Shown: positions 10,629 through 48,064 of the stretch, piece by piece | How positions within the stretch are numbered: position 1 is the stretch's first letter | Layout: each line of letters begins with the position of its first letter | Assembly: GCA_958296135.2 (NCBI GenBank) | Contig: CATQHZ020000001.1 | Coordinates: 192,001-256,000 of the forward strand | Reading direction: 5' to 3' | DNA: 64,000 nucleotides | Origin: an uncultured Poribacteria bacterium | Lineage (GTDB): Bacteria > Poribacteria > WGA-4E > WGA-3G | Program-made: the position numbers and the translations under genes | The notes under the pieces: model-generated | Database searches by the model: none | Told to the model about the DNA's origin: nothing | Seen by the model: only the letters and a program-made list of their open reading frames with translations

Positions 10629-11106
10629 GCATGCATCTCCTTTTTGCCAATTTTAATGCCTATATGATATAATAACGTAACGGAATCCGAAAAGGCAAAC
10701 GAAAATGTGTCAGAAGCATGTAGTTTATCCCAGGGCTGGCGTTCGGGGCCGCAACCCGCCGATGTGAATCACATCGGGATTACGCACGCTCAGGCGAGCT
10801 GGGTTCCCTACAAAGGCAAAAATTTGAAAACTGAATCGCGCTGAAAATGTGTTGACTCGTTTGCACTTCCGGGCTATACTGAAGCAAGATAGGAAAAGAA
10901 ACCATGCCGATAAACGTGCTTTATGAAGTTTCAGTAATTAAGGGGCTCGGTGCAGTGGCGAGAACTCTATGAGAATCTAGCAGAACCTACCCTAATCTAT
11001 CTCCGATTTTTGCGCAGTGTCATTCGCAAAGCCGAATGACACATCTTCGGCATGCTTGGCTTTCGCAAGCATGCCTACGCAAAAATCGGCAGATGTGCAT
11101 TTTGAC

Positions 11107-11135
11107 TTGCAGTCGGCTTGGATTTGTGGTAGAAT
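11107..11135 (+). promoter_or_regulatory. Sigma70 promoter of the tnpB element
   Basis: TTGCAG-N17-TAGAAT with extended TG. Conserved as TTGCAT-N17-TATAAT in copy 2. Confidence 0.7.
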
Positions 11136-11138
11136 ATA

Positions 11139-11233
11139 GTTACCGTTGTGGGCGAGACATCCAAGCACGGCATCCCGCCGTGTCTCTCGCCCAACCTACC
11201 TTGGATGGAGGTTAACCAACGGCGAACGGTGAC
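11139..11233 (+). ncRNA. Conserved structured 5' leader RNA upstream of tnpB (unassigned family)
   Basis: Homologous to 47599-47693 (minus strand) with compensatory changes: CATCCAAG/CTTGGATG vs CTGCTAGG/TCTAGCAG, and AACCT/AGGTT vs CACCT/AGGTG. Confidence 0.7.
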
Positions 11234-11238
11234 GCTCT

Positions 11239-12483
11239 ATGACATTGAAAACGCATTTAATGGCGTTGGACCCGAATAATAAGCAGGCGACGCTGCTTGC
11301 AAAGCACTGCGGCTATGCCCGCGTGGCACGTAACCATGCGCTCTCGGAATTCAAGGCAGGACTCGACCGCGATGAATTCCTATCCGATATGGACTTGCGC
11401 AAACGGTTCAACGCCGTGAAAGATGAACGCTACCCGTGGTGCCGCGAGCTCAGTCAAAATGCATCGAAGAATGGGATTTGCAACCTCGGTGATGCAGTGA
11501 AACGCTGGATATCTAAACAAAACCGTTTCCCGCGCTATAAGAACCGATCTGGTAGGAGTTCCTACCAAGCTGACAACGGCGCAGGCACGGTAAAGGTGGA
11601 GAAAAAGCGTGTCAACCTTCCGAAGATAGGCTGGGTTCGGATGCGCGAGAAGTTGCGTTGGCGTGGCGAGATTCGGCGGTGTGTCGTCTCAAAACGTGCG
11701 GGCAGGTGGTTTCTATCGGTTCTCGTGAAGGTGGTTTCCGACAGTGCACCACGTGTGCGTTCTCCGCGCGGTCCTGTGCGTGTGGTTGGTGTCGATGTTG
11801 GCATCAAGACACTTGCTGTGACATCCGATGGTGTTGAGTTTGAAAACCCGAAGGCATTGTATCGATACCTGCGGAAGTTGCGGCGTGCGCAGCGTCAGCT
11901 CTCTCGTTCGGTTTACCGAAGCAGGAATTGGTATCGGAAGCAGGTGCGCGTGCAGCAGATTCACTATCGTATCTGCTGTCTGCGTGAGGATGCCCATCAC
12001 AAGGCAAGCACGGCGATTGTAAAGTCGGCTGACGTTCTCGGCATCGAGAGTCTTCGTGTGGCAGGCTTGTTGAAAAACCGCCGTCTTGCAAAGGCGTTGA
12101 GCGATGCGTCATTAAGTGGTTTCCTGACGATGCTTCGGTATAAGGCGGAGGCGCGTGGTGTTGAGATTATCGAAGCACCGTTGAACTTCCCGTCATCGAA
12201 GACGTGCAGTGCTTGCGGGAAGAAGAAGACGAAGTTGTCCCTCTCGGAGCGGACATATCACTGCGAGGCATGTGGCGCGGTCCTCGACCGCGACTTGAAT
12301 GCCGCGTATAATTTAAGAAACCTCGCCGCGAGCTTGACGGAGAGGGAAAACGGCTGCGGAGCGACTATAAGCCCTCATAGTAGGCACACCTCGTGTGTCT
12401 CGGAGGCACGCCGCATTGAAACAGCAACTACGACAGATAAGAGGACAGGTCAGCTTAGGATAGATTTGTCCAGAGGATCATAA
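11239..12483 (+). CDS. tnpB: RNA-guided endonuclease TnpB
   Basis: RuvC motifs GVDVG, IESL and DRDLNAA; Zn finger CSAC..CEAC; N-terminal HTH. Confidence 0.92.
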   Translation: MTLKTHLMALDPNNKQATLLAKHCGYARVARNHALSEFKAGLDRDEFLSDMDLRKRFNAVKDERYPWCRELSQNASKNGICNLGDAVKRWISKQNRFPRYKNRSGRSSYQADNGAGTVKVEKKRVNLPKIGWVRMREKLRWRGEIRRCVVSKRAGRWFLSVLVKVVSDSAPRVRSPRGPVRVVGVDVGIKTLAVTSDGVEFENPKALYRYLRKLRRAQRQLSRSVYRSRNWYRKQVRVQQIHYRICCLREDAHHKASTAIVKSADVLGIESLRVAGLLKNRRLAKALSDASLSGFLTMLRYKAEARGVEIIEAPLNFPSSKTCSACGKKKTKLSLSERTYHCEACGAVLDRDLNAAYNLRNLAASLTERENGCGATISPHSRHTSCVSEARRIETATTTDKRTGQLRIDLSRGS

Positions 12484-12623
12484 GTTCTAGGGAGCGGTTA
12501 TTTTCGCAACGCGCGCACGCTTGTGAGTGTAAGGGCGGATGTCTCTAACCGCCCGCCGGGAATGCCTTGTTCCTTTTCTGAATCTTCATTTAGCACTTAA
12601 TATCTATAGGGAAGGACTCCGAT

Positions 12624-13193
12624 ATGCGAGAACAAGCATTGAAAGCGTTCGCGAGCATCTGGCTGTTGCTCTGCTTCGCAATTTTTAACGCCTGCGTGGA
12701 AGAAAGCCGCGTAGAAGAAATCATCGATGAAACCGAAATAGCAACCGAACCTGTCGCCCCTGAAGAGGGAGCGATACCTGTCGTCGCCTTGCCAGGACTC
12801 CCTAACGATGTCGCCGGGTATGAAGGCTGGCTCAAACTCAACGCCGAACCGATACCGCCGGCCGCTGGCGGGGACCCGCACCGCGGCACCAAAAACGTCT
12901 ATGTCAACCAAGCGCGGGATGCCATCGCACCGAATGGCGAGCAAGTGTTTCCCTATCCCCATGGCAGCATTGTCGTGAAGGAGGCATACCGCCCAGGCAA
13001 GGATTACATCGGACTCATCGCTATCATGCGGAAAATTGCCGGGAGCGATGCCGAGCACAACGACTGGAAGTTCGTCGAATACACCCGAAATGCACCCGAT
13101 GCCGAATTCAGCATCATCGCCGCCGACGGCATCTGTTGGGGATGCCACGCACGCGTGGAAGATATTGACTACGTCTTTACCGAATTGGATTAA
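12624..13193 (+). CDS. Cytochrome P460-family lipoprotein
   Basis: Lipobox FNAC, VYVN..YPHGSIVVKE..MRK..W.FVEY and C-terminal CWGCH..DYVF. Confidence 0.75.
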   Translation: MREQALKAFASIWLLLCFAIFNACVEESRVEEIIDETEIATEPVAPEEGAIPVVALPGLPNDVAGYEGWLKLNAEPIPPAAGGDPHRGTKNVYVNQARDAIAPNGEQVFPYPHGSIVVKEAYRPGKDYIGLIAIMRKIAGSDAEHNDWKFVEYTRNAPDAEFSIIAADGICWGCHARVEDIDYVFTELD

Positions 13194-14697: not shown

Positions 14698-17600
14698 ATG
14701 GTAACGAAACTCTCGAAAACATTCTTAATCGGTGTCATCGGATTGCTCTCACTGATTATCATCGCAGGCATCTTCTATATCGTGCGCGAAAATACCGGGA
14801 CTCAGACGCGCTACAGCGTCAACGCCTTCACCCCACAAGGCGATGTCCCGCAATGGGTAGATTTCTCGTGGACTTTTTCGGAACCGATTGTCGACAACGC
14901 TAGCATTGGAGCGGAAGTACCGCAGCACGCCATCCGCTTCACGCCGGCCGTGGAAGGAAAAGCGCGCTGGGTAGCCCGCGATAGCATCCGCTTCACACTG
15001 GATAGCCCGTTGGCACCTTCGGCGCGATACACGGTTGAACTCTCCTCACGCCTCAGCCCTTCTGGCAGTTTTGTGCTCACCGGGCGACGGCAGTTTGCCT
15101 TTGCAACACGGCGGTTTGAAGTCACAAACACCTCCTTTGAATTCCGATACAACGCCGGGAGACAGAAGGCGAATGCCATCGGCACCATCGCCTTTAACTA
15201 TCCTGTCAACATTGCCGATTTAAAGGCGCACCTATCTATCCTGCTTGATGGCGACACCGAAATTCCTTATCATCTGCTCACCGAGACATCAACCGCGCGC
15301 ACGGTAACGCTTGAAACCGGGGAAGTTGAACGCGGACGCGAAGACCGGGTGCTCACCGTGCGGATACAGAAGGATTTCAAATGCACCGGCGGACAACTCG
15401 GACTGGAGACAGCAAGCGTTACGCCGGTAATTCTGAGCGGCAGCGGCATCCTCGGCATCACCTATTGCAATGTGGAAGAAGAGGCAGGCAGGCCCTATAT
15501 CGCACTCCGATTCAGCACGCCTGTCCCACCACTCGCCGCTGCACCCTATCTCCAGCTCAAACAAGGCGATGCATCGAACGCTCTCCAAAACGTCCAGGTA
15601 GTTGAACAATACGGGGATATTCAGATTCACGGCGATTTCAAGCGGCGCGCAACTTACACCCTCACGATTCAGGAGGGACTGACAGCGCGCGACGACTCAG
15701 TGCTCAAAAAACCATACACCGCACGCCTCACTATTCCTGATCTACCGCCGACAGCGCGGTTCCTCGGCGGACACAGGGGCGGCGCAGGCTTCCTCGCAAG
15801 AGAAGGCGCCTTGAACATCGGCGTTGCAACCATTAATATCAACCGGCTAGAACTTGAAATCGAGAAGGTTTTCGCCAATAACCTCATCTATCTCGCCAAA
15901 GTAGAGGCGTGGAGCCGATGGAGCTCTCGGCACATCGGCACTCCCGTGCATGAAGAAATCCTCGCCGTGGACGCGCGATTAAACGAGGAGGTTACCACAC
16001 CCATCCCCCTCGGCAATTATCTAGCGGAAGACCCGGGCATTTTCAAAATCGTCGTGCGAGATGCTGAAGATAGAAGGGTGAGCGCAAACCAGTGGGTGCT
16101 CATCACCGACCTGGGACTGCTCGTCAAGCGCATCGGCGATTCGCTCTACGTCTGGGTGAAATCCTTGGAAACGCACGAACCGGTGCCAGCCGCACGCGTC
16201 AAACTCATCAGTGAGAACAACCAGACGCTCCTCACCGGCACCACAAACTGGGCCGGGTTTGTCAAGTTTACCCAAAACGTCGTCTTTGACACCCCCGAAA
16301 TGCAAGACTTGACAACGTCAAATCGGCCCGGTAAGGCCACGACATCAAACCAAAAACCTTTTATGCTCACCGTCGCGAAAGACGATGATCTGGCGTTTCT
16401 CCAACTCGACCGGGATGAGCGCGCCACCGCCGATTTCAACGTCGCCGGCCCCGCCTATCTCGAAAAGGGTTACGAAGCGTTCTTGTGGACAGGGCGCGGT
16501 GTCTATCGTCCGGGTGAGACAGTCGAACTTGCTGGCATTGTGCGAGGGCCGCAGCACACCATCCCGCCGCCTCTCCCCGTGCATCTTGAGGTGCTTGCCC
16601 CGGATGGCAGAATCTTGCGGGAAGCGCGCCTCAAGACATTGAAGAGCGGCGCGTGCGAGGTGCGCATCCAGATTCCGGCCTACGCGCAAACAGGCGGCTA
16701 CATCGCCACACTCCGCATCGCCGAAAAGGTGGTTGGGCGCACCCGCTTTCAAGTAGAAGAATTTATGCCAGACCGGATGAAAGTGAAGGTGACAACCGAC
16801 AAACCCGCTTATACGCTCGGCGATACCGTGGACGTTGAAGTCACCGCCGTTAACCTCTTCGGACCGCCTGCCGCCGAACGGCACGTAGAAGCGAATTGTG
16901 AACTGACCGCGGTGCCGCTGACGTTTGCAAACTGGGAAGGATTCACCTTCGGCGAACCTTTGAAAGAAGTTTTCGGGACGCAGCGCATTGCGTTAGGCGA
17001 AACAAAAACGGATGAAGTGGGGAAAGCGAGTTATCCGTGGAAAGTGCCGGAGATGCAACAGCCGCCGGCTCGGCTCCGCGGGGTAATGACTGCAACCGTG
17101 CGCGAAGTCGGCGGTAGAGCCGTCACTGCATCGCATGCTGTCGAGATCCATCCTTACTCGTACTACGTCGGGCTGCGCCGCGCCGCACCTGATGCGCAGG
17201 GTGAACCAAACACACCAATGGCCATAGATGTCATCGCTGTTGACGCGACCGGGGCAGGTGCCGAGGGGCGTACACTCACGCTCACGCTCCGCAAGGTACA
17301 GTGGAACACGCTCCTCCGGCAATCTGTGCAAGAATCGTATCGCCAGGGAACTTATGCCTATATCTCTGAAGCAGAAACGGAGGCAGTGGAGAAACGCACG
17401 ATAACCTCAGCGGCGCAGATAACCCGTGTGACGTTAACACCGCCCGATGCAGGCGACTATCGGGTGAGCGTGGTGGACACCGGCACCGGCGCACGAACCG
17501 AACTCGGCTTTTCTGTCGGTGGATGGGGGTGGATACCTGCAGCCATGTCACATCCGACACGGCTGGACATGTCGCTTGATAAACCGACGTACCGCCCAGG

Positions 17601-20301
17601 GCAAACGGCGAAACTGCGGATTCAGGCACCATTCCCCGGCACGCTCCTCCTCACTGTGGAACGTGAGAAACTGCTCAGTTACCGTACGGTAACGTTGACA
17701 GGCAACACCGCCACGCTGGACATCCCTGTCTGGCGCGGTTACGCACCGAACGTCTACCTCTCTGCTACCTTAATCCGAGCCGCACCAGCCCCGCAACCTG
17801 GCGAGGAAAACCTTAGCGACGGCGCAACCCGCGTAAGCGGAGACGCAGGGAACGTTACCCTGAAGAAACAAGCCTTTCCGAACGCTTGGCGAAACGACGA
17901 AAAACGCGCGTTTGGAGTTATCCCGTTGACACTCGATGCCGAACGCAACCGACTCTCGATTGAGATGGATATCCCCGAAGAAGTGCGGCCGAACAGCGAG
18001 GTGGAAATCGCCTTTCAAGTGAGAGGGACGCGGCGGCAGCAGTTCCATGTGTGTATCGCCGCTGTTGATGAAGGCATCCTCGCGTTGACAGATTTCCAAA
18101 CGCCGCGCCCGCACGACTATTTTTATCGGCAACGGGGACTGGAAACGCGCACGTTCGATCTGTATGGCGCACTTTTACCCGAACGTCCGGGCGCGGTGCA
18201 GCGCGTACCGCTGCACCCCGGTGGCGATAGTCAGGCGATGGCGCAGCAGCGGGTGCGGCGGCTCAGCACTGCAAGTGCCATGCGCGTCAAACCCGTTTCA
18301 CGTTGGGCAGGTATCGTGAAAACCGACACCCGCGGCCGGGGCACTGTCCGTTTCACACTGCCGCAATTCAACGGCACCCTGCGGCTCATGGCTGTCGCGT
18401 TCGCCGGCGCGACGTACGGTGCAGCAGAAGCATCGCTCCGCGTACGCGAACCCATTGTACTCACCCCGACGTTCCCGCGCTTCCTCGCCGGCGGCGATAA
18501 GATTCGCGTGCCGGTTACACTCGCTAATGGCACCGGGGCAGATGGCACGTTCACGGTGAAACTGACAGCAACCGGGGCAGTGCAGCTGCTGGATAGCGGC
18601 GAACACCAAGTTGCTGTTGCATCGGGTGCCGAAGGACACGTCGCTTTTGACGTGCGCGCACACGATGCGATAGACACTGTCGTTTTCACCCTAGTCGCAG
18701 CGGGCAATGCCCAGACAACACATCAGGAGGTGACACTACCGCTGCGTTCCGCTACACCGCCGATAACACAGACAGGACAAGGCGTTGTCCGCGCAGGCGA
18801 ATCCGGTGATTTCGTTTTCCCTTCAAACCTGATGGCAGAATCGTCCGAATTCTCGCTGACGCTCTCGCCGTTTCCGGCCGTAACGTTCGCGGAAAGCCTA
18901 CGATACCTAATCGGATATCCTTACGGATGCGTGGAACAGACGACGAGCCGGGTCTTCCCGCTCCTCTATTTCAGCCAGCTCGCAGAAGTGGTGGAACCCA
19001 CGCTTGCGAAAGATGGCAGCGTCGAACGTTACATTCGCACCGGCATCACCAAATTGGAGAGCATGCTCCTCTCTTCCCACCATTTCGCCTACTGGCCGAA
19101 TGGCACTTACGTCAACCCATGGAGCAGTCTCTATGCAGCGCACTTCCTCGTCGAAGCACGGAAAGCAGGCTATGCTGTAGCAGACCGGGTTTATGCTGAC
19201 ATGCTCCTCGGCATGCGAGCACTCGCAAAGTTGTCCACACTGCAGAACAAGGAACCGGCGATGGAGGAACTCTCTCTCGCCGCGTACGCCTGTTATGTCC
19301 TCGCCGCCGCAGGAAAGCCCGAAAAGGGCGCAATGCACTACCTGAAAGACCGGGGACTCAGCGGCCTCAGCCAATACAGCCATTTTCAACTCGCCGGCGC
19401 GTTTGCCCTCAGCGGCGGATTGGAGACAGCCCTCTCCATGCTCCCGGTTTCTGTCTCACCCCAAACCTCCAAGAGAGAGACTGGGGGGACACTCAACTCG
19501 CCAGTTCGAGCGCAAGCCATTATGTTGGATGTGCTAGCAGAGGTGAACGAAAACCATCCCTCACTTCCAACGCTCGTTAAGAATCTGGCAGATGCCGCAT
19601 CAAAAGGGAACCGGTGGGGCACGACACAAGAGAACGCCTTCGCCTTCCTCGCGCTCGGCAAAATTATGCAGAAACAAAAGTCGCGCGACATCACCGGCAC
19701 CCTCACCCTCAACGGCGAACATTTCGCTGAACTTGACGCTACAGAAAAGCGTTACACCGACGATGCTTGGGACGGAACGAAGGTGCAACTCACAGTTGAG
19801 GGTGAAGGAGACTGCTACTATTATTGGACTGCCTTCGGCATCCCGCGCGATTCGTTTATTGAGGAATACGCCCGCGAACTGCAGGCGCGACGCCGCTATT
19901 TTGACAAACATGGCGAAGAACTGACACACACCTTCCAGCACGGCACCCTGGTCGTGGCGGAAATTACCGTAAAGGCTCTCACTGAATCGCTAGAGAACGT
20001 CGTTGTCGTAGACATGGTGCCCGCGGGGTTCGAGATTGAGAATCCGCGGCTGGAATCGCGCGCCGAGATCCCGTGGATAAAAGCAGGCGAGTTCAAACCT
20101 GACTATGTGGACATCCGGGACGATAGGCTTATCTTCTTCGGCAACTTCCCGCGCCAACGCGAACGCAAATTCTATTACGCGCTTCGCGCTGTCACGCAAG
20201 GCGAATTTATCTTGCCACCGCTCGCAGCAGAGGCAATGTATGACGCGACAAAATCTGCTGTCGCTGGCAGTCGGCGAATTGAAATTGTTGCATCGGAATA
20301 A
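14698..20301 (+). CDS. Bacterial alpha-2-macroglobulin (YfhM-like)
   Basis: YRPGETV, VEEFMPDR, AAVDEG and thioester motif YPYGCVEQTTS. Located directly upstream of pbpC. Confidence 0.92.
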   Translation: MVTKLSKTFLIGVIGLLSLIIIAGIFYIVRENTGTQTRYSVNAFTPQGDVPQWVDFSWTFSEPIVDNASIGAEVPQHAIRFTPAVEGKARWVARDSIRFTLDSPLAPSARYTVELSSRLSPSGSFVLTGRRQFAFATRRFEVTNTSFEFRYNAGRQKANAIGTIAFNYPVNIADLKAHLSILLDGDTEIPYHLLTETSTARTVTLETGEVERGREDRVLTVRIQKDFKCTGGQLGLETASVTPVILSGSGILGITYCNVEEEAGRPYIALRFSTPVPPLAAAPYLQLKQGDASNALQNVQVVEQYGDIQIHGDFKRRATYTLTIQEGLTARDDSVLKKPYTARLTIPDLPPTARFLGGHRGGAGFLAREGALNIGVATININRLELEIEKVFANNLIYLAKVEAWSRWSSRHIGTPVHEEILAVDARLNEEVTTPIPLGNYLAEDPGIFKIVVRDAEDRRVSANQWVLITDLGLLVKRIGDSLYVWVKSLETHEPVPAARVKLISENNQTLLTGTTNWAGFVKFTQNVVFDTPEMQDLTTSNRPGKATTSNQKPFMLTVAKDDDLAFLQLDRDERATADFNVAGPAYLEKGYEAFLWTGRGVYRPGETVELAGIVRGPQHTIPPPLPVHLEVLAPDGRILREARLKTLKSGACEVRIQIPAYAQTGGYIATLRIAEKVVGRTRFQVEEFMPDRMKVKVTTDKPAYTLGDTVDVEVTAVNLFGPPAAERHVEANCELTAVPLTFANWEGFTFGEPLKEVFGTQRIALGETKTDEVGKASYPWKVPEMQQPPARLRGVMTATVREVGGRAVTASHAVEIHPYSYYVGLRRAAPDAQGEPNTPMAIDVIAVDATGAGAEGRTLTLTLRKVQWNTLLRQSVQESYRQGTYAYISEAETEAVEKRTITSAAQITRVTLTPPDAGDYRVSVVDTGTGARTELGFSVGGWGWIPAAMSHPTRLDMSLDKPTYRPGQTAKLRIQAPFPGTLLLTVEREKLLSYRTVTLTGNTATLDIPVWRGYAPNVYLSATLIRAAPAPQPGEENLSDGATRVSGDAGNVTLKKQAFPNAWRNDEKRAFGVIPLTLDAERNRLSIEMDIPEEVRPNSEVEIAFQVRGTRRQQFHVCIAAVDEGILALTDFQTPRPHDYFYRQRGLETRTFDLYGALLPERPGAVQRVPLHPGGDSQAMAQQRVRRLSTASAMRVKPVSRWAGIVKTDTRGRGTVRFTLPQFNGTLRLMAVAFAGATYGAAEASLRVREPIVLTPTFPRFLAGGDKIRVPVTLANGTGADGTFTVKLTATGAVQLLDSGEHQVAVASGAEGHVAFDVRAHDAIDTVVFTLVAAGNAQTTHQEVTLPLRSATPPITQTGQGVVRAGESGDFVFPSNLMAESSEFSLTLSPFPAVTFAESLRYLIGYPYGCVEQTTSRVFPLLYFSQLAEVVEPTLAKDGSVERYIRTGITKLESMLLSSHHFAYWPNGTYVNPWSSLYAAHFLVEARKAGYAVADRVYADMLLGMRALAKLSTLQNKEPAMEELSLAAYACYVLAAAGKPEKGAMHYLKDRGLSGLSQYSHFQLAGAFALSGGLETALSMLPVSVSPQTSKRETGGTLNSPVRAQAIMLDVLAEVNENHPSLPTLVKNLADAASKGNRWGTTQENAFAFLALGKIMQKQKSRDITGTLTLNGEHFAELDATEKRYTDDAWDGTKVQLTVEGEGDCYYYWTAFGIPRDSFIEEYARELQARRRYFDKHGEELTHTFQHGTLVVAEITVKALTESLENVVVVDMVPAGFEIENPRLESRAEIPWIKAGEFKPDYVDIRDDRLIFFGNFPRQRERKFYYALRAVTQGEFILPPLAAEAMYDATKSAVAGSRRIEIVASE

Positions 20302-20402
20302 TGTGGGAAAGGGCGATGGACGGATATGGACATCCGCCTTTACAGGGAAGTGTGTGGCAGAGGCGATGTATAATACCAAACGCCTTGCGAACAACGAAAA
20401 AC

Positions 20403-22796
20403 ATGAATTGGAAAAAATGCATCAGGATAGGTATATTTGTGGTTATCGGCGTGCCTGTGTTGCTGTTCGTCCTCTTGAACGCCTGCTTTCCATTACCGGC
20501 ACGCCGACTCCATCCCCCGCCATCCGCGCTCGTTTTGGACAGAAACGGACAGGGGCTCCGCGCCTTTTTAGCAACTGATGGCATGTGGCGGATGCCCGAA
20601 CCCGAACTCAGCCGCGTCTCACCGGGGCTCACGCAAGCGGCGTTAGCGGTGGAAGATAGATGGTTTCATTATCATTGGGGTATCAACCCGGTGTCCCTCG
20701 CCGGGGCAGCGTATGATAATCTTCGCGCAGGGAAGGTGGTGCGCGGCGGCTCAACGATTACGATGCAGCTCGCGCGTTTGATGGAACCGAAAGCGCGCAC
20801 ACTGCCCAATAAGTGTGTTGAGATGTTCCGCGCCCTCCAGTTAGAACTCACCTACTCCAAATCGGAAATTTTAACCTTTTACTTTAACATGCTCCCCTAC
20901 GGCGGCAACATCGTCGGTTCGGCGGCTGCGGCGCGGCTCTATTTTAACAAACCGCAGCAGGCGATGAGCCTTGGGGAGGCAGCCCTCCTCGCCAGCATCC
21001 CGAATGCGCCGGAACATTTGCGGCCCGACAGATTCCCAAAGCGCGCCCGAACGGCGCGGAATAAAGTGCTCGCCCTTCTCCTCGCACGCAGGCAGATTGC
21101 GCAAAGCCAATGGCACGAAGCACGGCAAGAACCGATTCCCACACGGCGGCATCCGTTGCCTTTCAAGGCACCGCATCTCGCGCGGCTGCTGGCGAAAAAG
21201 CAGACACGCAAAGACGGACGGATATATACCACGATTGATGCGCACATACAAGAGACTGCCGTTCGGATACTGCAGCAAGCAGTGGAAGCACAGTATAGAA
21301 CCGGCTCGCCTGAGCACGTTAACGCTTCCACCGGTGCAGTGGTTGTAATGGATACGCAGCATCGCGAGGTGTTGGCACTCGTCGGTTCTCACGATTTTTT
21401 TGACAGCACGGCTCTAGGACAAGTCAACGGCGCGCTCGCACCGCGCTCACCCGGCTCTGCACTGAAACCTTTCGTCTACGCGCTCGCCATCGAACGGGGG
21501 GTGATAACGCCAGAGACGTTGCTCTTCGATGTACCTGTCTCCTACCGCGGCTATCGGCCCGTGAATTACGATGGCACTTACAGCGGCTACGTCTCCGCGC
21601 GCGAAGCACTGGCGCGCTCGCTCAATGTCCCAGCGGTGAATCTCGCCGCACAACTGGACACGTCGCTGGAAGGATTTCTCAAGCAGGCAGGTATCTCAAC
21701 CCTATCCGATGCCAGACGGTATGGGCTCTCAATGGTTCTCGGCGGATGTGAGGTGAATCTGTTGGAGTTGACAACGCTCTACGCCGGATTGGCAAACATG
21801 GGCGAATTCGCGCCGTATCAGCTCAGGTTCTCTGGACACACCGGGCTACGGCTCGGCACAGGGATGAACGCCCACCCTACAGAGCAAAGCGGGCCATCCT
21901 TGCTCCGTCCTGAAACGTGTTATATAGTGCTAGAGATGTTGACGACACTAGAGCGTCCCGATTTTCCAAAAGCCTCTTTTGACAGAACAGTGAATCTCCC
22001 CAAAATCGCGTGGAAAACGGGGACATCCTTCGGGCATCGAGATGCATGGAGTCTCGGCACGTCTCCAGAGTTGACGATTGGCGTATGGCTCGGCAATTTC
22101 AGTGGGAAGGGCGCGCCGAATCTCAGCGGCGCGGAAGCAGCAACGCCAATTCTCTTTGCACTTTTCAACGCGCTCACGGCGGAGAAAACACACCGATGGT
22201 TTCCGCAACCCGAAGGCGGACTCCGAGAACGGCAGGTGTGCGCGCTGAGTGGACAGCCCCCCTCAGCACAGTGTCCAGCACAGAAAACCGATGTCTATAT
22301 GCCGGGGGTTTCACCCGTCAATGTCTGTTCATTGCATCAACAGGTGTGGGTAGATAAGGCTACAGGGTATAGCGTCTGTCCGCAGTGTGCCAGTCCGAAG
22401 AATGAGAAACCTGGGAATTATGAGGAACGAGTGCTGACAGAATGGCCCGCCGAGGCGGCGACATGGTTGGCCGAAAACGGGTTTGCGGTGCCCGTGTTTC
22501 CGCCTCATAACCCCCGCTGCACCGCGCCGCGGCCCGGGGATGCTCCGGTTATCCTGTCGCCGGAAGAGGATACCGTCTATACCCTTCGCACAGGCGTGCC
22601 ACGAGAGTATCAGAAGATTCGGCTCGCTGCATCGATTTCTAATCGGACACAGGAACTTTTTTGGTTCCTTGATGGCGAGTTAGTTTCAACCGCGCCGACG
22701 TTTTTTCTCATGCCGGTTGTCGGACAGCACACGGTGACGTGTGTTGATGGCGATGGGCGCGCGACGAGTCGTCACCTTGTTATCAAAACGTGGTAG
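20403..22796 (+). CDS. pbpC: Penicillin-binding protein 1C
   Basis: EDRWF..H.G, GGSTITMQLAR, SALK, SLN, KTGTS, C-terminal PBP1C domain. ATG 20403 is preferred over 20301 because the upstream segment is REP-derived. Confidence 0.92.
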   Translation: MNWKKCIRIGIFVVIGVPVLLFVLLNACFPLPARRLHPPPSALVLDRNGQGLRAFLATDGMWRMPEPELSRVSPGLTQAALAVEDRWFHYHWGINPVSLAGAAYDNLRAGKVVRGGSTITMQLARLMEPKARTLPNKCVEMFRALQLELTYSKSEILTFYFNMLPYGGNIVGSAAAARLYFNKPQQAMSLGEAALLASIPNAPEHLRPDRFPKRARTARNKVLALLLARRQIAQSQWHEARQEPIPTRRHPLPFKAPHLARLLAKKQTRKDGRIYTTIDAHIQETAVRILQQAVEAQYRTGSPEHVNASTGAVVVMDTQHREVLALVGSHDFFDSTALGQVNGALAPRSPGSALKPFVYALAIERGVITPETLLFDVPVSYRGYRPVNYDGTYSGYVSAREALARSLNVPAVNLAAQLDTSLEGFLKQAGISTLSDARRYGLSMVLGGCEVNLLELTTLYAGLANMGEFAPYQLRFSGHTGLRLGTGMNAHPTEQSGPSLLRPETCYIVLEMLTTLERPDFPKASFDRTVNLPKIAWKTGTSFGHRDAWSLGTSPELTIGVWLGNFSGKGAPNLSGAEAATPILFALFNALTAEKTHRWFPQPEGGLRERQVCALSGQPPSAQCPAQKTDVYMPGVSPVNVCSLHQQVWVDKATGYSVCPQCASPKNEKPGNYEERVLTEWPAEAATWLAENGFAVPVFPPHNPRCTAPRPGDAPVILSPEEDTVYTLRTGVPREYQKIRLAASISNRTQELFWFLDGELVSTAPTFFLMPVVGQHTVTCVDGDGRATSRHLVIKTW

Positions 22797-29438: not shown

Positions 29439-31985
29439 CTACTTCCGAATTACCAGCTTCCGCGTCGCCGAGAAATCTCCGGCCTGCAGCGTGTAGAAAT
29501 ACACGCCACTCGCAACCGGCTCTCCCTGTGCATTGCGGCCATCCCAATACGCGGCGCGGGACTTGCCCGAATATACGCCCGCCGGAACTTGGCCCAACTC
29601 CAAGGTGCGTACCAGTTTCCCATCCGATGCGTGAATCCTGACGGTGACCTCCGCAGCCTTTGCCAACTGATACGGTATCCACGTTTCCGGGTTAAACGGA
29701 TTCGGATAGTTGGCAAGCAGCGCGGTTTGTTTCGGCGTTAGACTTGCGAGGAGCTGCTGCAGCACGGCAATGCCGCGCCGATACACAGGGTTTGCGCTGT
29801 CCAGCCGTTGCGCCTGCGCGAGCCACTGTTGCACATCCGCCGCCCGTAGGAGAGACCTCCCGGTCTCGATTTCCCCTTGTAGGAGAGCCCTCCCTGTCTC
29901 GATGCTCCTCCCTGTCCCGATATGCCACCGCGCGAACCCCGGCGCGCCCGCTGCCTCCCCAAACGCCGCTGCCACCAACACCAAATCCTGAATGTTGACA
30001 ACGCCATCACCGTTGACATCAGCGGGATTATCTTCACTTGTCTGTCCGAACTGCGCGGCGACAAGCGTTAAGTCCAGAATGTCCACCACGCCATCGCCGT
30101 TGATATCTGCGGCGACTTGCACCGGTGTGGGTGCAGACGGTGCGATGTCCCAGAGGAGCACCGTGCCGTCCCAACTGCCAGTGGCGAGTGTGTTTCCATC
30201 GGGGCTGAACGCAACGCTCTCGACATCGTCCGTATGTCCGGTGAGTGTGTTTAGTGTGTCGCCGGTGACCACATCCCACAGACGGATGGTTTTGTCATAA
30301 CTCGCACTTGCGAGTGTGTTTCCATCTGGGCTGAACGCAACGCTCTCGACACCGTCCGTATGGCCGGCGAGTGTGTTTAGTGTGTCGCCGGTGACCACAT
30401 CCCACAGACGGATTTCTGCATAACTGCCACTTGCGAGTGTGTTTCCATCTGGGCTGAACGCAACGCTATAGACATACCAGGTATGGCCGGTGAGTGTTTG
30501 GCGTGTGTCGCCGGTGGCGACATCCCACAGCCGGATGGTGTAGTCCCAACTCGCACTTGCGAGAGTGTTTCCATCCGGGCTGAACGCAACGCTATTGACA
30601 CTAGAGGTATGGCCGGTGAGTGTGTTTAGTGTGTCGCCGGTGACGACATCCCACAGACGGACGGTGCTCCCACTCCCACTTGCGAGCGTGTTTCCATCCG
30701 GGCTGAACGCAACGCTATTGACACTAGAGGTATGGCCGGTGAGTGTTTGGCGTGTGTCGCCGGTGGCGACATCCCACAGACGGACGGTTCTGTCATAACT
30801 CGCACTTGCGAGTGTGTTTCCATCTGGGCTGAACGCAACGCTAACGACATCCCAGGTATGTCCGGCGAGTGTGTTTAGTGTGTCGCCGGTGGCCACATCC
30901 CACAGCCGGACGGTGTCGTCATAACTCGCACTTGCGAGTGTGTTTCCATCCGGGCTGAACGCAACGCTATAGACACCGCTCGTATGGCCGGTGAGTGTGT
31001 TTAGTGTGTCGCCGGTGGCGACATCCCACAGACGGACGGTGTCGTCCCAACTGCCACTTGCGAGCGTGTTTCCATCGGGGCTGAACGCAACGCTTCTGAC
31101 CCAGTCCGTATGTCCGGTGAGTGTGTTTAGTGTCTCGCCGGTGGCGACATCCCACAGCCGGACGGTGTCGTCCCCACTCGCACTTGCGAGCGTGTTTCCA
31201 TCAGGGCTGAACGCAACGCTATAGACATTGTCCGTATGGCCGGTGAGTGTGTTTAGTGTGTCGCCGGTGACCACATCCCACAGACGGACGGTGTCGTCCC
31301 CACTCGCACTTGCGAGTGTGTTTCCATCCGGGCTGAACGCAACGCTATAGACACCGCTCGTATGGCCGGTGAGTGTGTTTAGTGTGTCGCCGGTGGCGAC
31401 ATCCCACAGACGGACGGAGCCGTCCCAACTGCCACTTGCGAGCGTGTTTCCATCGGGGCTGAACGCAACGCTTCTGACCCAGTCCGTATGGCCGGTGAGT
31501 GTGTTTAGTGTGTCGCCGGTGACCACATCCCACAGACGGACGGTGTCGTCCCAACTGCCACTTGCGAGTGTGTTTCCATCCGGGCTGAACGCAACGCTCC
31601 TGACATTGCCCGTATGTCCGGTGAGTGTGTTTAGTGTCTCGCCGGTGGCGACATCCCACAGACGGACGGTGTCGTCCCAACTGCCACTTGCGAGTGTGTT
31701 TCCATCGGGACTGAACGCAACGCTAATGACAGAGCCCGTATGGCCGGTGAGCAGTGCTACTTCTTGGTAAGTTGCGGTATCGTAGAGCCAAATCCCGATG
31801 GAACTTGCAACCGCTAGCAGGGTGCCATCGGGAGAATACACAATCTCGTTGATCCAGCCTTTGCCGAGGCGTAAGGTTGCACCTTCGGGTAAGTGCCACT
31901 GTGGAGAATCTTGGGCGGTGGCGGGTGTCAGTGCCAAGGTGGCGGTTAATAGCAGGGTTAAGGTTAAAAGCGTTAATGTTTTCAT
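29439..31985 (-). CDS. Secreted WD40-repeat protein with dockerin-like and C-terminal FlgD-Ig/T9SS-like domain (paralog 1)
   Basis: Signal peptide, 13 near-identical GHT..V.SVAFSPDGNTLAS..WD repeats plus one degenerate repeat, DINGDGVVDILD/DVNGDGVVNIQD, NYPNPFNP...SGVYFY. Confidence 0.92.
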   Translation of the reverse strand: MKTLTLLTLTLLLTATLALTPATAQDSPQWHLPEGATLRLGKGWINEIVYSPDGTLLAVASSIGIWLYDTATYQEVALLTGHTGSVISVAFSPDGNTLASGSWDDTVRLWDVATGETLNTLTGHTGNVRSVAFSPDGNTLASGSWDDTVRLWDVVTGDTLNTLTGHTDWVRSVAFSPDGNTLASGSWDGSVRLWDVATGDTLNTLTGHTSGVYSVAFSPDGNTLASASGDDTVRLWDVVTGDTLNTLTGHTDNVYSVAFSPDGNTLASASGDDTVRLWDVATGETLNTLTGHTDWVRSVAFSPDGNTLASGSWDDTVRLWDVATGDTLNTLTGHTSGVYSVAFSPDGNTLASASYDDTVRLWDVATGDTLNTLAGHTWDVVSVAFSPDGNTLASASYDRTVRLWDVATGDTRQTLTGHTSSVNSVAFSPDGNTLASGSGSTVRLWDVVTGDTLNTLTGHTSSVNSVAFSPDGNTLASASWDYTIRLWDVATGDTRQTLTGHTWYVYSVAFSPDGNTLASGSYAEIRLWDVVTGDTLNTLAGHTDGVESVAFSPDGNTLASASYDKTIRLWDVVTGDTLNTLTGHTDDVESVAFSPDGNTLATGSWDGTVLLWDIAPSAPTPVQVAADINGDGVVDILDLTLVAAQFGQTSEDNPADVNGDGVVNIQDLVLVAAAFGEAAGAPGFARWHIGTGRSIETGRALLQGEIETGRSLLRAADVQQWLAQAQRLDSANPVYRRGIAVLQQLLASLTPKQTALLANYPNPFNPETWIPYQLAKAAEVTVRIHASDGKLVRTLELGQVPAGVYSGKSRAAYWDGRNAQGEPVASGVYFYTLQAGDFSATRKLVIRK

Positions 31986-32576: not shown

Positions 32577-35123
32577 CTACTTCCGTATCACCATCTTTCG
32601 CGTCGCCGAGAAATCACCCGCGGACAGCGTGTAGAAATACACGCCACTCGCAACCGGCTCTCCCTGCGCATTGCGGCCATCCCAATACGCGGCGCGGGAC
32701 TTGCCCGAATATACGCCAGCCGGAACTTGGCCCACCTCCAAGGTGCGTACCAGTTTCCCATCCGATGCGTGAATCCTGACGGTGACCTCTGCGGCCTGTG
32801 CCAATGCATACGGTATCCACGTTTCCGGGTTGAACGGATTCGGATAGTTGGCAAGCAATGCGGTTTGTTTCGGCGTTAGACTTGCGAGGAGCTGCTGCAG
32901 CACGGCAATGCCGCGTTGATACGCAGGGTTTGCGAGATCTAGCCGTTGCGCCTGCGCGAGCCACTGTTGCACATCCGCCGCCCGTAGGAGAGACCTCCCG
33001 GTCTCGATTTCCCCTTGTAGGAGAGCCCTCCCTGTCTCGATGCTCCCTGTCCCGATATGCCCCTGCGCGAACCCCGGCGCGCCAGCTGCCTCCCCAAAGG
33101 CCCCCGCCACCAACACCAGATCCTGAATGTTGACAACGCCATCGCCGTTGACATCGGCCGGATTGTCTGCACTTGTCTGTCCGAACTGCGCGGCGACAAG
33201 CGTTAAGTCCAGAATGTCCACCACGCCATCGCCGTTGATATCTGCGGCGATTTGCACCGGTGTGGGTGCAGACGGTGCAATGTCCCAGAGGAGCACGGTG
33301 CCATCATCACTGCTACTGGCGAGTGTGTTTCCATCGGGGCTGAACGCAACGCTCCAGACATAGTGCGTATGTCCGGTGAGTGTGTTTAGTGTGTCGCCGG
33401 TGACCACATCCCACAGCCGGACGGTGTCGTCCTCACTCGCACTGGCGAGCGTGTTTCCATCGGGGCTGAACGCAACGCTAAAGACATTGTCCGTATGTCC
33501 GGTGAGTGTGTTTAGTGTGTCGCCGGTGACGACATCCCACAGACGGACGGTGCTCCCACTCCCACTTGCGAGCGTGTTTCCATCTGGGCTGAACGCAACG
33601 CTATTGACACTAGAGGTATGTCCGGTGAGTGTTTGGCGTGTGTCGCCGGTGGCGACATCCCACAGACGGACGGTGGTGTCCCTACTCGCACTTGCGAGTG
33701 TGTTTCCATCCGGGCTGAACGCAACGCTCCTGACATTGCCCGTATGTCCGGTGAGTGTTTGGCGTGTATTGCCGGTGGCGATATCCCACAGACGGAGGGT
33801 TTCGTCCGAACTCGCACTGGCGAGCGTGTGTCCATCAGGGCTGAACGCAACGCTCCTGACACCGCCCGTATGGCCGGTGAGTGTGTTTAGTGTGTCGCCG
33901 GTGGCCACATCCCACAGCCGGACGGTGTCGTCCCAACTGCCACTTGCGAGTGTGTTTCCATCTGGGCTGAACGCAACGCTCCAGACATAGTGCGTATGGC
34001 CGGTGAGTGTGTTTAGTGTGTCGCCGGTGGCGACATCCCACAGCCGGACGGTGTTGTCCTCACTCCCATCACTTGCGAGTGTGTTTCCATCCGGGCTGAA
34101 CGCAACGCTCCAGACCCAGCGCGTATGGCCGGTGAGTGTTTGGCGTGTTTCACCGGTGGCCACATCCCACAGCCGGACGGTGGTGTCAAAACTCCTACTT
34201 GCGAGTGTGTTTCCATCGGGGCTGAACGCAACGCTAATGACATTGTCCGTATGGCCGGTGAGTGTTTGGCGTGTCTCGCCGGTGACCACATCCCACAGCC
34301 GGACGGTGTAGTCCGCACTCGCACTTGCGAGTGTGTTTCCATCCGGGCTGAACGCAACGCTATAGACATTCAAGGTATGTCCGGTGAGTGTGTTTAGTGT
34401 GTCGCCGGTGGCGACATCCCACAGACGGACGGTGGTGTCCCTACTCGCACTTGCGAGTGTGTTTCCATCCGGGCTGAACGCAACGCTATAGACCCAGTGC
34501 GTATGTCCGGTGAGTGTTTGGCGTGTATCGCCGGTGGCGACATCCCACAGACGGATGGTTTCGTCCCAACTGCCACTTGCGAGTGTGTTTCCATCGGGAC
34601 TGAACGCAACGCTAGAGACCACCCAGGTATGTCCGGCGAGTGTGTTTAGTGTGTCGCCGGTGGCCACATCCCACAGCCGGACGGTGTCAAAACTCCCACT
34701 TGCGAGCGTGTTTCCATCCGGGCTGAACGCAACGCTAATGACATTGTCCGTATGGCCGGTGAGTGTTTGGCGTGTGTCGCCGGTGGCGACATCCCACAGC
34801 CGGACGGTGTTGTCATCACTCGCACTTGCGAGCGTGTTTCCATCCGGGCTGAACGCAACGCTCAAGACAACGCCCGTATGCCCAGTGAGCAGTGCCACTT
34901 CTTGGTAAGTTGCGGTATCGTAGAGCCAAATCCCGATGGAACTCGCAACCGCTAGCAGGGTGCCATCGGGAGAATACGCAATCTCGCGGATGCGGCCTTT
35001 GCCGAGGCGTAAGGTGGCCCCTTCGGGTAAGTGCCACTGTGGAGAATCTTGGGCGGTGGCGGGTGTCAGTGCCATCGCGGCGGTTAATAGCAGGGTTAAG
35101 GTTAAAAGCGTTAATGTTTTCAT
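32577..35123 (-). CDS. Secreted WD40-repeat protein with dockerin-like and FlgD-Ig/T9SS-like domain (paralog 2)
   Basis: Same architecture and length (848 aa) as 29439..31985. Confidence 0.92.
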   Translation of the reverse strand: MKTLTLLTLTLLLTAAMALTPATAQDSPQWHLPEGATLRLGKGRIREIAYSPDGTLLAVASSIGIWLYDTATYQEVALLTGHTGVVLSVAFSPDGNTLASASDDNTVRLWDVATGDTRQTLTGHTDNVISVAFSPDGNTLASGSFDTVRLWDVATGDTLNTLAGHTWVVSSVAFSPDGNTLASGSWDETIRLWDVATGDTRQTLTGHTHWVYSVAFSPDGNTLASASRDTTVRLWDVATGDTLNTLTGHTLNVYSVAFSPDGNTLASASADYTVRLWDVVTGETRQTLTGHTDNVISVAFSPDGNTLASRSFDTTVRLWDVATGETRQTLTGHTRWVWSVAFSPDGNTLASDGSEDNTVRLWDVATGDTLNTLTGHTHYVWSVAFSPDGNTLASGSWDDTVRLWDVATGDTLNTLTGHTGGVRSVAFSPDGHTLASASSDETLRLWDIATGNTRQTLTGHTGNVRSVAFSPDGNTLASASRDTTVRLWDVATGDTRQTLTGHTSSVNSVAFSPDGNTLASGSGSTVRLWDVVTGDTLNTLTGHTDNVFSVAFSPDGNTLASASEDDTVRLWDVVTGDTLNTLTGHTHYVWSVAFSPDGNTLASSSDDGTVLLWDIAPSAPTPVQIAADINGDGVVDILDLTLVAAQFGQTSADNPADVNGDGVVNIQDLVLVAGAFGEAAGAPGFAQGHIGTGSIETGRALLQGEIETGRSLLRAADVQQWLAQAQRLDLANPAYQRGIAVLQQLLASLTPKQTALLANYPNPFNPETWIPYALAQAAEVTVRIHASDGKLVRTLEVGQVPAGVYSGKSRAAYWDGRNAQGEPVASGVYFYTLSAGDFSATRKMVIRK

Positions 35124-46263: not shown

Positions 46264-46380
46264 TCTAATGTTACCTCCTGTTCGCGCTTATTTCTCAGGA
46301 CGATTCAGTTTTCAAATGTGCGCCAGTTCTTGCCGCACTACATAACCTATGAGAATCTCGTCAAATGTAGACTTATCTGC

Positions 46381-47595
46381 CTATGCAAAGTCTACGAGTC
46401 TCTGTTCGGTCAGCGGTTTCCTGCTTCTTCCGCGCACACGCGGGTTCTGATGCCAGCCTACCAAAGTAGGTGTTACAGCATCTCCACAGGCGTTTTGGCT
46501 CTCCTCAGTGCTTGAGGCGAGCTGTCGAAGGTTTATAGCGGCGTTAACGTCTCTGTCCTCTACCAATCCGCAGATACCGCAGTGATATTCTCTGTCCTTG
46601 AGCGTCAGTTTGAATTCGCCACGTTTGACGTAGCCACAGGAACTGCATCGCTGTGTTGACGGCCAGAACTTATCTGCCGACACAATGCGGATGCCGCGCC
46701 ACACCGCCTTGTATTTGAGTTTGACGAGGAAGCCGCCAAGACTTGCATCGGCGAGTGCCTTGCTCAGCTTGCGGTTCTTCATCAAACCTTTCACGGTGAG
46801 GCTTTCAATGCCAAGTGCCGAGATGCCTTGCAGGATGCGATGTGTCACCTGATGATGGGCATCGGTTCTCACATTGGCGATACGGGCATGCAGGCGGGCG
46901 AGGCGTTCCTTCGCCTTCCACCAGTTTTTGCTCATGAACGTCTTGCGGGCGAGTGCCTTATTTGCACGGCGTAGTTTGCGTTCATTGACACGCAAGGCAC
47001 GCGGATTTTCGTAGACAGTGCCATCGTCCATCGTAGCGAGGGCAGAGATGCCGACATCACAACCTGCAGGGGGCAGTGCTGACGTGTCGGGCGGTTCCGG
47101 TTCATTAACTTCGACAAGGATGCTGAGATACCATCGATGTGCGATTCGCTTAACGAAAGCACGGCGAACTTCACCTGTCCATCGAGGGTTTTCATGCAAC
47201 CTAACCTGTCCAATTATCGGAAGGACGACGTGTTTACCGTCCGCCGTCATTTTGACAGTATTGACACCATTATCAATCTGGAACGCAGGGGCAGACTTAT
47301 GCGTCTTCCGTTTGGGCGCACCATTCTGTCCCGATTTGTATCTGGCGATAGCATCACCGAAAGCGTGGATAGCAGTCTTGCCTGCGTTTTGAGAACACGC
47401 GGCGAATTCGGGGAACACCTCGCGCTTCCGTGAGTTGAAGATTTTCTTCAAATCGTAGAGAGAGTTACGGCGGTCGGCGTTCCAATCAGAATGTGCGGCA
47501 TTATATGCAACACGGGCGAAATCCACGTGACGACAGAACATCGCAACTTGTTCCTCGCTAGGGTTGAGTGCTATCTTCTGGGCTCGTAGTGCCAT
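46381..47595 (-). CDS. tnpB: RNA-guided endonuclease TnpB
   Basis: GCDVG, IESL and DRDVNAA RuvC motifs; CSSC..CGIC Zn finger. ATG 47595 is at the same position as the copy 1 start. Confidence 0.92.
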   Translation of the reverse strand: MALRAQKIALNPSEEQVAMFCRHVDFARVAYNAAHSDWNADRRNSLYDLKKIFNSRKREVFPEFAACSQNAGKTAIHAFGDAIARYKSGQNGAPKRKTHKSAPAFQIDNGVNTVKMTADGKHVVLPIIGQVRLHENPRWTGEVRRAFVKRIAHRWYLSILVEVNEPEPPDTSALPPAGCDVGISALATMDDGTVYENPRALRVNERKLRRANKALARKTFMSKNWWKAKERLARLHARIANVRTDAHHQVTHRILQGISALGIESLTVKGLMKNRKLSKALADASLGGFLVKLKYKAVWRGIRIVSADKFWPSTQRCSSCGYVKRGEFKLTLKDREYHCGICGLVEDRDVNAAINLRQLASSTEESQNACGDAVTPTLVGWHQNPRVRGRSRKPLTEQRLVDFA

Positions 47596-47598
47596 AGA

Positions 47599-47693
47599 GT
47601 CACCGTTCCCGTTGGGTGTCACCTGCTGCTAGATAGGTGGGGCGAGAGACACGGCGGGAAGCCGCGCCTAGCAGTCTCGCCCCCAACGGTAAC
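47599..47693 (-). ncRNA. Conserved structured 5' leader RNA upstream of tnpB (copy 2)
   Basis: Homologous to 11139-11233 with compensatory substitutions. Starts just after TTGCAT-N17-TATAAT. Confidence 0.7.
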
Positions 47694-48064
47694 TATATTA
47701 TACCACAAAATCAAGCGGAATGCAAGTCAAAATGCACACTGTTAGATTAGGGCAGATACTCCTAGTATCTCATAGAGTTATCGTCACTGCACCGAGCCCT
47801 ATTGAACGTGCCCGATGCCGATACGATGACAGTTGAGCGAACTGAATCGTTCTGGGCTTATCTATAGAAAATCTGCCAACAACATTTCAATACGTCTATG
47901 ATAACAAATTTTCAGAAATATGTCAAGAGAAAAAAACGAAAAAAGTTGACAGCAAATCGATTTCTGTCTATAATAAATGATAAAGGCATGATACGAGAAG
48001 TTCCAAGTTTTAAAAGGAGCAGATTTGCCGTATTTTCAGGAAAGGACACACGCTTAACAGGGAT

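Follow-up and report, generated by a model that had tools for sequence, protein, structure and literature searches.

The window analysed here, a stretch of 64,000 nucleotides from the genome of an uncultured Poribacteria bacterium, contains two diverged tnpB elements, in both of which about 100 nt of alignable sequence lie between a promoter-like site and the tnpB start codon. To our knowledge, the control of TnpB expression has been little explored, and the guide RNA of TnpB is well studied. The locus raises the question of whether this segment is a folded RNA in its own right and, if so, what it does in front of tnpB. A sequence-only reading of the window had described it as a pseudoknotted leader whose 5' end could pair in two ways, and had suggested a riboswitch-like, autoregulatory or ribozyme-like RNA that gates TnpB translation. 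These proposals were followed up by computational analysis.

The tnpB element and the fold of its leader

The positions of the leader, its helices and the surrounding element are given in Table 1. The TnpB proteins of copy 1 and copy 2 are 45% identical, and about 200 nt upstream of the genes are nearly unchanged in the alignment; the mean column identity over the copy 1/copy 2 alignment, which includes the flank and the gene start, was 76%.

Table 1. Features of the leader and of the two tnpB elements (window coordinates)
Feature	Position	Strand	Remarks
Left-end segment of copy 1	10943-10999	+	starts with GGGCTCGGTGCAG; homology among 21 copies begins here, flanks all differ
94-nt palindromic repeat	11001-11094	+	between left-end segment and promoter, outside the leader; in 3 of 21 copies
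Promoter-like site	11107-11135	+	TTGCAG, 17-nt spacer, TAGAAT; TG at 11127-11128 (-15/-14); read from the sequence
Leader of copy 1	11139-11238	+
X, 5' strand of closing helix	11139-11148	+	GTTACCGTTG; at the predicted transcript start
H1	11150-11192	+	GGGCGAGA (11150-11157) / TCTCGCCC (11185-11192); encloses the pseudoknot 5' strand, H3 and a TC bulge
Pseudoknot	11158-11165 / 11200-11207	+	CATCCAAG / CTTGGATG; 3' strand is the H4 loop
Hairpin H3	11166-11182	+	CACGGC (11166-11171) / GCCGTG (11177-11182)
Hairpin H4	11193-11213	+	AACCT (11193-11197) / AGGTT (11209-11213)
X'1, proximal partner of X	11217-11222	+	CAACGG; pairing with X would leave the ribosome site free
X'2, distal partner of X	11225-11233	+	AACGGTGAC; holds the SD-like GGTGA; ends 5 nt before ATG
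ATG of tnpB copy 1	11239	+
tnpB copy 1	11239-12483	+	414 aa; Pfam OrfB_IS605, Cas12f1-like TNB, HTH_OrfB
Conserved 3' region to right end	12270-12497	+	...AGGGAGCGG ending at 12497; start approximate
Whole element, copy 2	46333-47799	-	left end 47799, tnpB 47595-46381, right end 46333
Leader of copy 2 (type A)	47693-47596	-	before tnpB 47595-46381

The left end and the leader occur in 21 copies in the window's genome, each followed by a tnpB-like ORF (16 of 404-419 aa, three of 366-372 aa, and two cut to 276 and 186 aa). The leader follows the promoter, about 105-195 nt into the element from its left end. The right end (...GCGG) is 14 nt past the stop codon, GG is found at both element ends, and the sequences preceding the left ends of the 21 copies showed no conserved target word. 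In addition, the last ~230 nt of the element are conserved within each subfamily, and this 3' region is presumably the ordinary omegaRNA scaffold. Taken as such, it sets the leader apart from the omegaRNA: the conserved 3' region runs to the right end and the leader lies 5' of the ATG, in agreement with the earlier suggestion of a separate structured RNA in cis.

The elements carry tnpB only. The adjacent serine-recombinase tnpA of IS607 elements was found at none of the 21 copies, and the genome's three Resolvase-domain genes all lie elsewhere; neither of its two Y1_Tnp hits adjoins any copy. The tnpB elements may be mobilised in trans. The 94-nt palindromic repeat of copy 1 is identical in two other elements and gave 23 BLAST hit rows genome-wide (72-100% identity); it resembles a repeat family of the MITE or REP type. 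Immediately beyond the left end of copy 1, a further promoter-like site points inward (10852-10880, plus strand; TTGACT, 17 nt, TATACT; 10/12 consensus), so that read-through into the element is conceivable.

The leaders of the window's genome fall into types A, B and C, which are distinguished by compensatory substitutions in H1, H4 and the pseudoknot. A third TnpB subfamily (MKTHNIALRPT...) is preceded, at G000:C1:961314-961401 (-) and 1521835-1521922 (+), by a leader shortened to 88 nt, in which H3 is very small and whose final bases ahead of the ATG (GGAACACCTCATGAAA) agree with those of small-protein modules in another genus.

Other features of the window and genome are recorded here as separate observations. 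Two paralogous 848-aa proteins with TolB-like beta-propeller repeats and a C-terminal T9SS type A sorting domain are encoded at 29439-31985 (-) and 32577-35123 (-). A 1867-aa ORF with no NCBIfam match (14698-20301, +) is directly followed by a gene for a PBP1C-type penicillin-binding protein (20301-22796), and a 637-aa ORF (54293-56206, -), whose C-terminal stretch resembles adenine-specific DNA methyltransferases, has no leader motif ahead of it. Contig C2 of G000 (143,886 bases) has a G+C content of 36.8%, versus 54.4% for the main contig, and may be a foreign replicon or contamination.

The leader folds into a three-way junction made of the closing helix, an arm of H1 and H3, and the H4 hairpin, in which the H4 loop pairs with the internal loop between H1 and H3 to form a pseudoknot. 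All helices named in the sequence-only reading were found at the positions that it had given, and in copy 2 the long-range helix indeed has four compensated pairs, with one further G-C pair turned into G-U. The minimum-free-energy folds of the three leader types were better than those of dinucleotide shuffles, with z scores of -4.17 (0/200 shuffles as good), -2.88 (1/200) and -4.87 (0/200). Note that the H3 loop is variable between subtypes and that the junction strands are short.

Distribution, covariation and downstream genes

A first covariance model was built from the 20 distinct leaders of the window's own genome. Of 36 other genomes from the same family, 9 contained matches to it; the 24 genomes searched from three sister families contained none. 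A second model was built from these matches and used at a threshold of E <= 0.01. With it, the motif was detected in 90 of the family's 111 other genomes, distributed by genus as 64/65 (g5), 24/40 (g2), 1/1 (g3), 1/2 (g4), 0/2 (g1) and 0/1 (g6). A single genome contained as many as 26 matches; 150 matches were listed and 446 further ones were counted, giving about 600 matches in 91 of the 112 family genomes. When 150 other genomes of the phylum were searched, matches were present in 80 of 99 genomes of the family and 7 of 26 of a second family, and in none of 25 genomes of seven further families. Some of the second-family matches lie on short contigs (4.9, 18.8 and 141 kb). Outside these genomes, a blastn search of a plasmid collection returned no match to the element or to the small-protein module described below, two pattern scans of viral contigs gave 0 and 4 pattern matches, with 0 of the 4 confirmed by the model, and a narrow pattern, of little weight for the range of the motif, gave 28 matches in metagenome contigs, of which 4 were confirmed by the model at E <= 0.01, one of them at 62 bits. 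A search for related loci in genome contigs with the window TnpB retrieved only 2 distant loci.

Covariation was assessed on 77 matches (74 distinct) aligned to the second model, with pairs counted over the five-helix structure. Standard pairs filled 93.8% of cells in the 74 distinct leaders, as compared with 72.7% in shuffled alignments (0/500 reached the observed value) and 37-54% in controls with slid helices. Cells altered on both sides numbered 474 (139 shuffled, 50-68 slid), and the covariation score was 0.541 (0.181 shuffled, 0.055-0.084 slid). Note that these shuffle statistics overstate independence, because the sequences are kin and many come from one genus; the signal nevertheless recurs among leaders with quite different helix sequences. 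Specifically, 97.6% of cells were paired in H1, with both-side changes in 6 of 8 pairs, 95.7% in H3 (6 of 6), 97.6% in H4 (4 of 4), and 89.2% in the closing helix in its distal register (9 of 9). These four helices were part of the search model, so that their counts lean towards it. The pseudoknot was outside the model, yet 91.5% of its cells were paired and 5 of its 8 pairs had changed on both sides, which bears out the pseudoknot that had been proposed from the two window copies.

An alignment made without the model gave a similar result. On a MAFFT alignment of 18 diverse leaders, 91.7% of cells in H1, H3, H4 and the pseudoknot were paired, versus 73.1% in shuffles and 37-49% in slid controls, and the pseudoknot taken separately was 93.0% paired. 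RNAalifold recovered unaided only H1 and H3 from this alignment; it missed H4 and the closing helix owing to misalignment and the pseudoknot, and the pairs were therefore counted separately. Wobble pairs were frequent and all fit the sense strand (28 G-U cells at pair 33-52 and 22 at pair 3-110). Since these cells would read as A-C mismatches on the opposite strand, an RNA of the sense strand is favoured. Judged by this pattern, the segment is a genuine folded RNA leader, and its covariation is strong and extends to every helix.

The leader matched no named family. With Rfam 15, the 64-kb window gave 0 matches at gathering score, the stretch 10700-12900 gave 4 weak matches at E <= 10, none of them on the leader, and nine diverse homologous loci gave 0 matches at E <= 1, as the sequence-only reading had anticipated when it recognised no family. 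Four known RNAs were considered by name and rejected. A TnpB omegaRNA does not fit a leader that lies 5' of the ATG in an element whose separate conserved 3' region reaches the right end. For the omegaRNA of IscB/IsrB (HEARO) there was no Rfam match, and the genes downstream are TnpB and others. A group I intron of the IStron kind was dismissed in view of the absence of an Intron_gpI match and the leader's length of only ~100 nt. HDV-like ribozymes have a nested double pseudoknot with P1.1 and a catalytic C; no HDV-type family matched, and the 3' strand of the leader's pseudoknot sits in a hairpin loop.

A motif called Poribacteria-1 was reportedly described by Weinberg et al. in 2017. It may share a lineage with the leader; if it is contained in Rfam 15, it gave no match to the leader loci. 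Since the leader is absent from Rfam though abundant, it would constitute a new RNA family. Within a comparison that covered Rfam 15 and the accessible literature, it appears to be a real, abundant and undescribed RNA motif. We found no description of a TnpB 5' leader or of the motif in the literature as far as the accessible texts go; the supplement of PMC5737381 may list a Poribacteria motif, and the word Poribacteria-1 is absent from the accessible portion of that paper's main text and from the other papers searched.

The ORF after the leader was read for 140 matches (77 + 63; 137 distinct), which comprised the best-scoring listed matches and all own-genome copies, a sample biased towards the seed types. 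Simple rules assigned 56 of the 137 distinct leaders to small proteins beginning MKTIL..., 33 to TnpB, 8 to methyltransferases and 22 to other proteins; the remaining 18 had only an ORF of less than 80 aa. Thus, 104 of the 137 sampled leaders precede non-TnpB genes or only short ORFs. Among the 122 proteins of at least 80 aa, Pfam detected OrfB_IS605 in 36, N6_N4_Mtase in 7, two proteins each with MethyltransfD12, HNH and T5orf172 (one of the last also with GIY-YIG), and one each with AbiTii, Hypoth_Ymh, Endonuc-BglII and TIR_2. The tnpB genes that carry the leader belong to at least five TnpB subfamilies. Overall, the units that carry the module are numerous, unrelated and mostly composed of a single gene, and they include genes without element ends. 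Because several tnpB subfamilies share it with restriction-modification, abortive-infection and homing-type genes, a common post-transcriptional control of selfish and defence genes within one lineage is suggested.

By inspection, the small proteins begin with a signal-peptide-like segment, continue with a middle part that resembles a coiled coil and have a hydrophobic stretch at the C terminus; no Pfam family was found in them above threshold. This family (MKTILxLSILF..., 100-150 aa; L056, L027, L114 and ~50 others) is the commonest leader gene in one genus, and its copies are sometimes in tandem, 635 nt apart (L114). It has 248 relatives at E <= 0.001; the few rows with names carry either a generic label or the description of a hypothetical protein from Candidatus Poribacteria, and an organism is given for 2 of the 120 listed rows, in both cases Candidatus Poribacteria bacterium. 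A Protein Atlas search with a small protein gave only weak rows, below 0.9. Separately, a conserved ORF of 29-33 aa (MTGKPYFFEKSIQQK...) follows the leader in three genomes (L133, L140, L150) and may be a real small protein.

Two closing registers next to the start codon

The position of the leader relative to its promoter bears on what the transcript contains. The sequence-only reading had placed a sigma70 promoter before the leader, and a promoter-like site is present there; its choice of TTGACT as the -35 element was wrong, as that word lies 22 nt from the -10 box, and TTGCAG takes its place. With this -35 element, the copy 1 promoter was not called by a consensus promoter scan. Across the motif, a TANNNT hexamer ends 12-29 nt before H1 in 135 of 137 leaders (15-18 nt in 123), TG is present at -15/-14 in 116, and TTGnnn is found at 16-19 nt spacing in 108. 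Conservation upstream of the leader ends at about the -35 region, indicating that promoter, leader and start codon together form the common unit. About 4-9 nt separate the end of the -10 box from X, so that most of X should lie in the native RNA, and from this position the RNA is predicted to begin at or just before X; the transcript start would accordingly fall at X or within a few bases of it. No terminator-like site was found between the leader and the ATG.

The 16S rRNA 3' end in the window's genome reads ...GGATCACCTCCTT, and GGAG or GAGG precedes 39.9% of 2109 crude ORF starts in this genome, as compared with 10.2% in a control window, indicating that SD pairing is in use. In the window copies, GGTGA lies within X'2, the distal partner of X, at 5-6 nt from the ATG.

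X has two ungapped 3' partners in tandem, the proximal X'1 and the distal X'2. The proximal site ends 11-18 nt 5' of the start codon in nearly all leaders, and the distal site ends 2-9 nt from it. Since X'1 pairs with the 3' part of X and X'2 with its 5' part, the two helices are mutually exclusive. The registers were tested by an ungapped-helix scan of each sequence. Both helices reached at least 5 bp in 129 of 137 leaders (31.7% of shuffles), at least 6 bp in 102 (5.6%) and at least 7 bp in 77 (0.6%); in 8 of the 137, one of the two was missing at 5 bp. A second helix of -4 kcal/mol or better on the same X core was found in 62 of 74 leaders, versus 655 of 7400 shuffles that retained the best site. 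On fixed alignment columns, the proximal register was only 70.5% paired; as the subtypes differ by one column, the per-sequence scan is the better test.

The three strands co-vary across at least ten distinct X sequences. For example, CCAGCTT occurs with AAGCTGG and AGCTGG, ATCACGT with ACGTGAT twice, and TCACGGT with GCCGTGA twice. Both of the ways in which the 5' end can pair, seen earlier as a possibility in the window copies, are therefore conserved, and both covary over at least ten 5'-strand sequences. In the 62 leaders with a second helix, the predicted energy difference between the registers averaged -0.14 kcal/mol (sd 2.44), and the energies were within 2 kcal/mol of each other in 39 and within 3 kcal/mol in 46. 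This balance did not differ clearly between gene classes (means of -0.94 to +1.40 kcal/mol, sd 2.3-3.7). In the commonest subtype (CCAGTT), the distal site has no SD-like word; in that subtype, occlusion would thus act only via structure near the start codon.

Possible modes of action and comparison with known systems

Taking the above together, we think it probable that the leader is part of a portable promoter-leader module acting as a bistable translational switch. The promoter, folded leader and start codon would form an expression module whose RNA starts at or near X and folds into a compact three-way junction locked by the pseudoknot. Through the tandem duplicate of the 3' partner of X, the junction could close in two mutually exclusive registers. 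In the proximal register (X-X'1), the last ~12-15 nt before the start codon would be single-stranded, so that ribosomes could load (ON). In the distal register (X-X'2), the helix would reach to 2-9 nt before the start codon and, in the window copies, bury the SD-like GGUGA (OFF). With so little energy separating the registers, even a modest signal acting on the folded core might be enough to favour one of them; candidate inputs are a ligand, a protein, the ribosome itself, temperature and folding kinetics. Both partners are conserved, although the proximal one alone would suffice for a stabiliser and the distal one alone for a mask, from which we infer that both states are in use. The fold, the two registers, the position of the promoter and the range of genes served are documented in the sequences; the transcript start, the effect on translation and the existence of a trigger are what this arrangement leads us to expect.

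The switch may take the sharper form of a true riboswitch, in which a small molecule or ion binds the junction, stabilises the proximal helix and turns translation ON. The leader has a conserved structured domain in the 5' UTR and mutually exclusive pairings that tie this domain to the ribosome site, as riboswitches do, and its junction, tertiary contact and closing helix set against ribosome-site occlusion fit the architecture of translational ON riboswitches. The near-equal registers are as expected if a few kcal/mol of binding energy decide between them, and the motif is abundant, occurring many times per genome. However, the downstream genes share no metabolic theme or pathway that would hint at a ligand among the 122 proteins scanned (36 TnpB, 9 DNA methyltransferases, about 56 small membrane proteins and a few HNH, TIR, AbiTii and BglII proteins), and the short junction strands and the variation of the H3 loop by subtype also speak against it, no ligand being nameable. 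We thus regard a small-molecule riboswitch as possible, if rather doubtful. On a related and similarly tentative reading, to which we give slightly more credit, the leaders would form an orphan riboswitch-like class dedicated to the mobilome: the junction would be the sensor and the duplicated closing strand the whole expression platform, so that the selfish and defence genes of one uncultured lineage, namely those for TnpB, orphan or R-M methyltransferases, Abi, TIR and HNH proteins and small membrane proteins, would respond to a shared cellular signal by turning on translation in concert.

Alternatively, the leader could be a static 5' stabiliser or expression enhancer without regulation, its duplicate strand serving only to keep the fold while a ribosome occupies the start. 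A closing helix that starts at the predicted 5' end would suit this role, as would the many unrelated, mostly single-gene units, expected of a generic expression cassette. On the other hand, one closing helix would suffice for this purpose, the junction and pseudoknot exceed what 5' protection needs, and the conserved, covarying complementarity beside the start codon argues that masking has been selected. This explanation seems unlikely to us.

The other alternatives fare worse. Self-cleavage that trims the 5' ends of transcripts is very improbable: the compact pseudoknotted fold on mobile elements, with a strand order (H1 5', pseudoknot 5', hairpin, H1 3', pseudoknot 3') loosely recalling nested double-pseudoknot ribozymes, is offset by the lack of any Rfam ribozyme match at E <= 10 (window stretch) or E <= 1 (nine loci), by a promoter that abuts the fold and leaves little to remove, and by the hairpin-loop position of the pseudoknot 3' strand, unlike in HDV-type folds. 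The ribozyme-like option of the sequence-only reading was thus left with nothing in the sequence that would indicate cleavage. Its proposal of a TnpB-specific, autoregulatory device was not supported either. TnpB binds pseudoknotted RNA, as in published omegaRNA structures, and the leader is on tnpB mRNAs of several subfamilies, so that a binding site for TnpB or the TnpB-omegaRNA complex could be imagined through which tnpB translation is autoregulated. The same promoter-leader module, however, precedes unrelated genes, most of the sampled leaders standing before something other than tnpB, and in the window's genome the leader types and the two TnpB subfamilies occur in mixed combinations (e.g., L009, L011, L012), which makes autoregulation extremely unlikely. 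From the genes it precedes, the leader is not a TnpB device, and its tie to TnpB is incidental. Just as hard to credit is a single-stranded DNA structure or recombination site for the mobility of the element or cassette, which would agree with the place of the leader near the left end and with the difficulty of distinguishing RNA from ssDNA motifs by sequence (accessible part of PMC5737381), but not with its distance from that end downstream of a promoter, its conservation in the 3 of 21 copies where the 94-nt insertion parts it from the left-end segment, its occurrence before genes without element ends, the stop of upstream conservation near -35, or the frequent sense-strand wobbles.

The bistable switch that we favour is of unusually simple design, consisting of a tandem duplicate of the closing strand and two registers of equal energy, and its modular promoter-leader-start codon form could serve as a compact engineered translational switch. 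Measured against Rfam 15 and the accessible literature, the leader would represent a new family among the cis-acting leader switches, one whose platform is unusual.

Among RNAs of the same element, the omegaRNA is like the leader in being a pseudoknotted non-coding RNA. The omegaRNA, however, occupies the 3' end and continues into the flank beyond the right end, whereas the leader is at the 5' end, has no adjacent guide and also occurs without TnpB. The leaders of IS10, IS50 and IS200 are simple fold-backs that sequester the ribosome-binding site, some of them only in read-through transcripts. As in our leader, an upstream sequence pairs with the ribosome site on a transposon mRNA, holding translation down. 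The present leader differs in that its 5' strand is at the predicted start of the element's own transcript, and in that it has a covarying pseudoknotted junction shared with non-transposon genes. The adenine (add) riboswitch is a translational ON riboswitch built on a three-way junction. Riboswitches of this type resemble the leader in their place in the 5' UTR, their closing helix, two arms and tertiary contact, and in the competition of the closing helix with a pairing that hides the ribosome site. Their sequences and junction are unrelated to those of the leader, whose tertiary contact is a pseudoknot of 8-9 bp between an internal loop and a hairpin loop, whose 3' strand is duplicated in tandem instead of being followed by a separate expression platform, and whose genes have no common pathway. 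By the tests run, the leader is thus a member of neither the ON riboswitches nor the IS leaders, and it resembles both in the way it would work.
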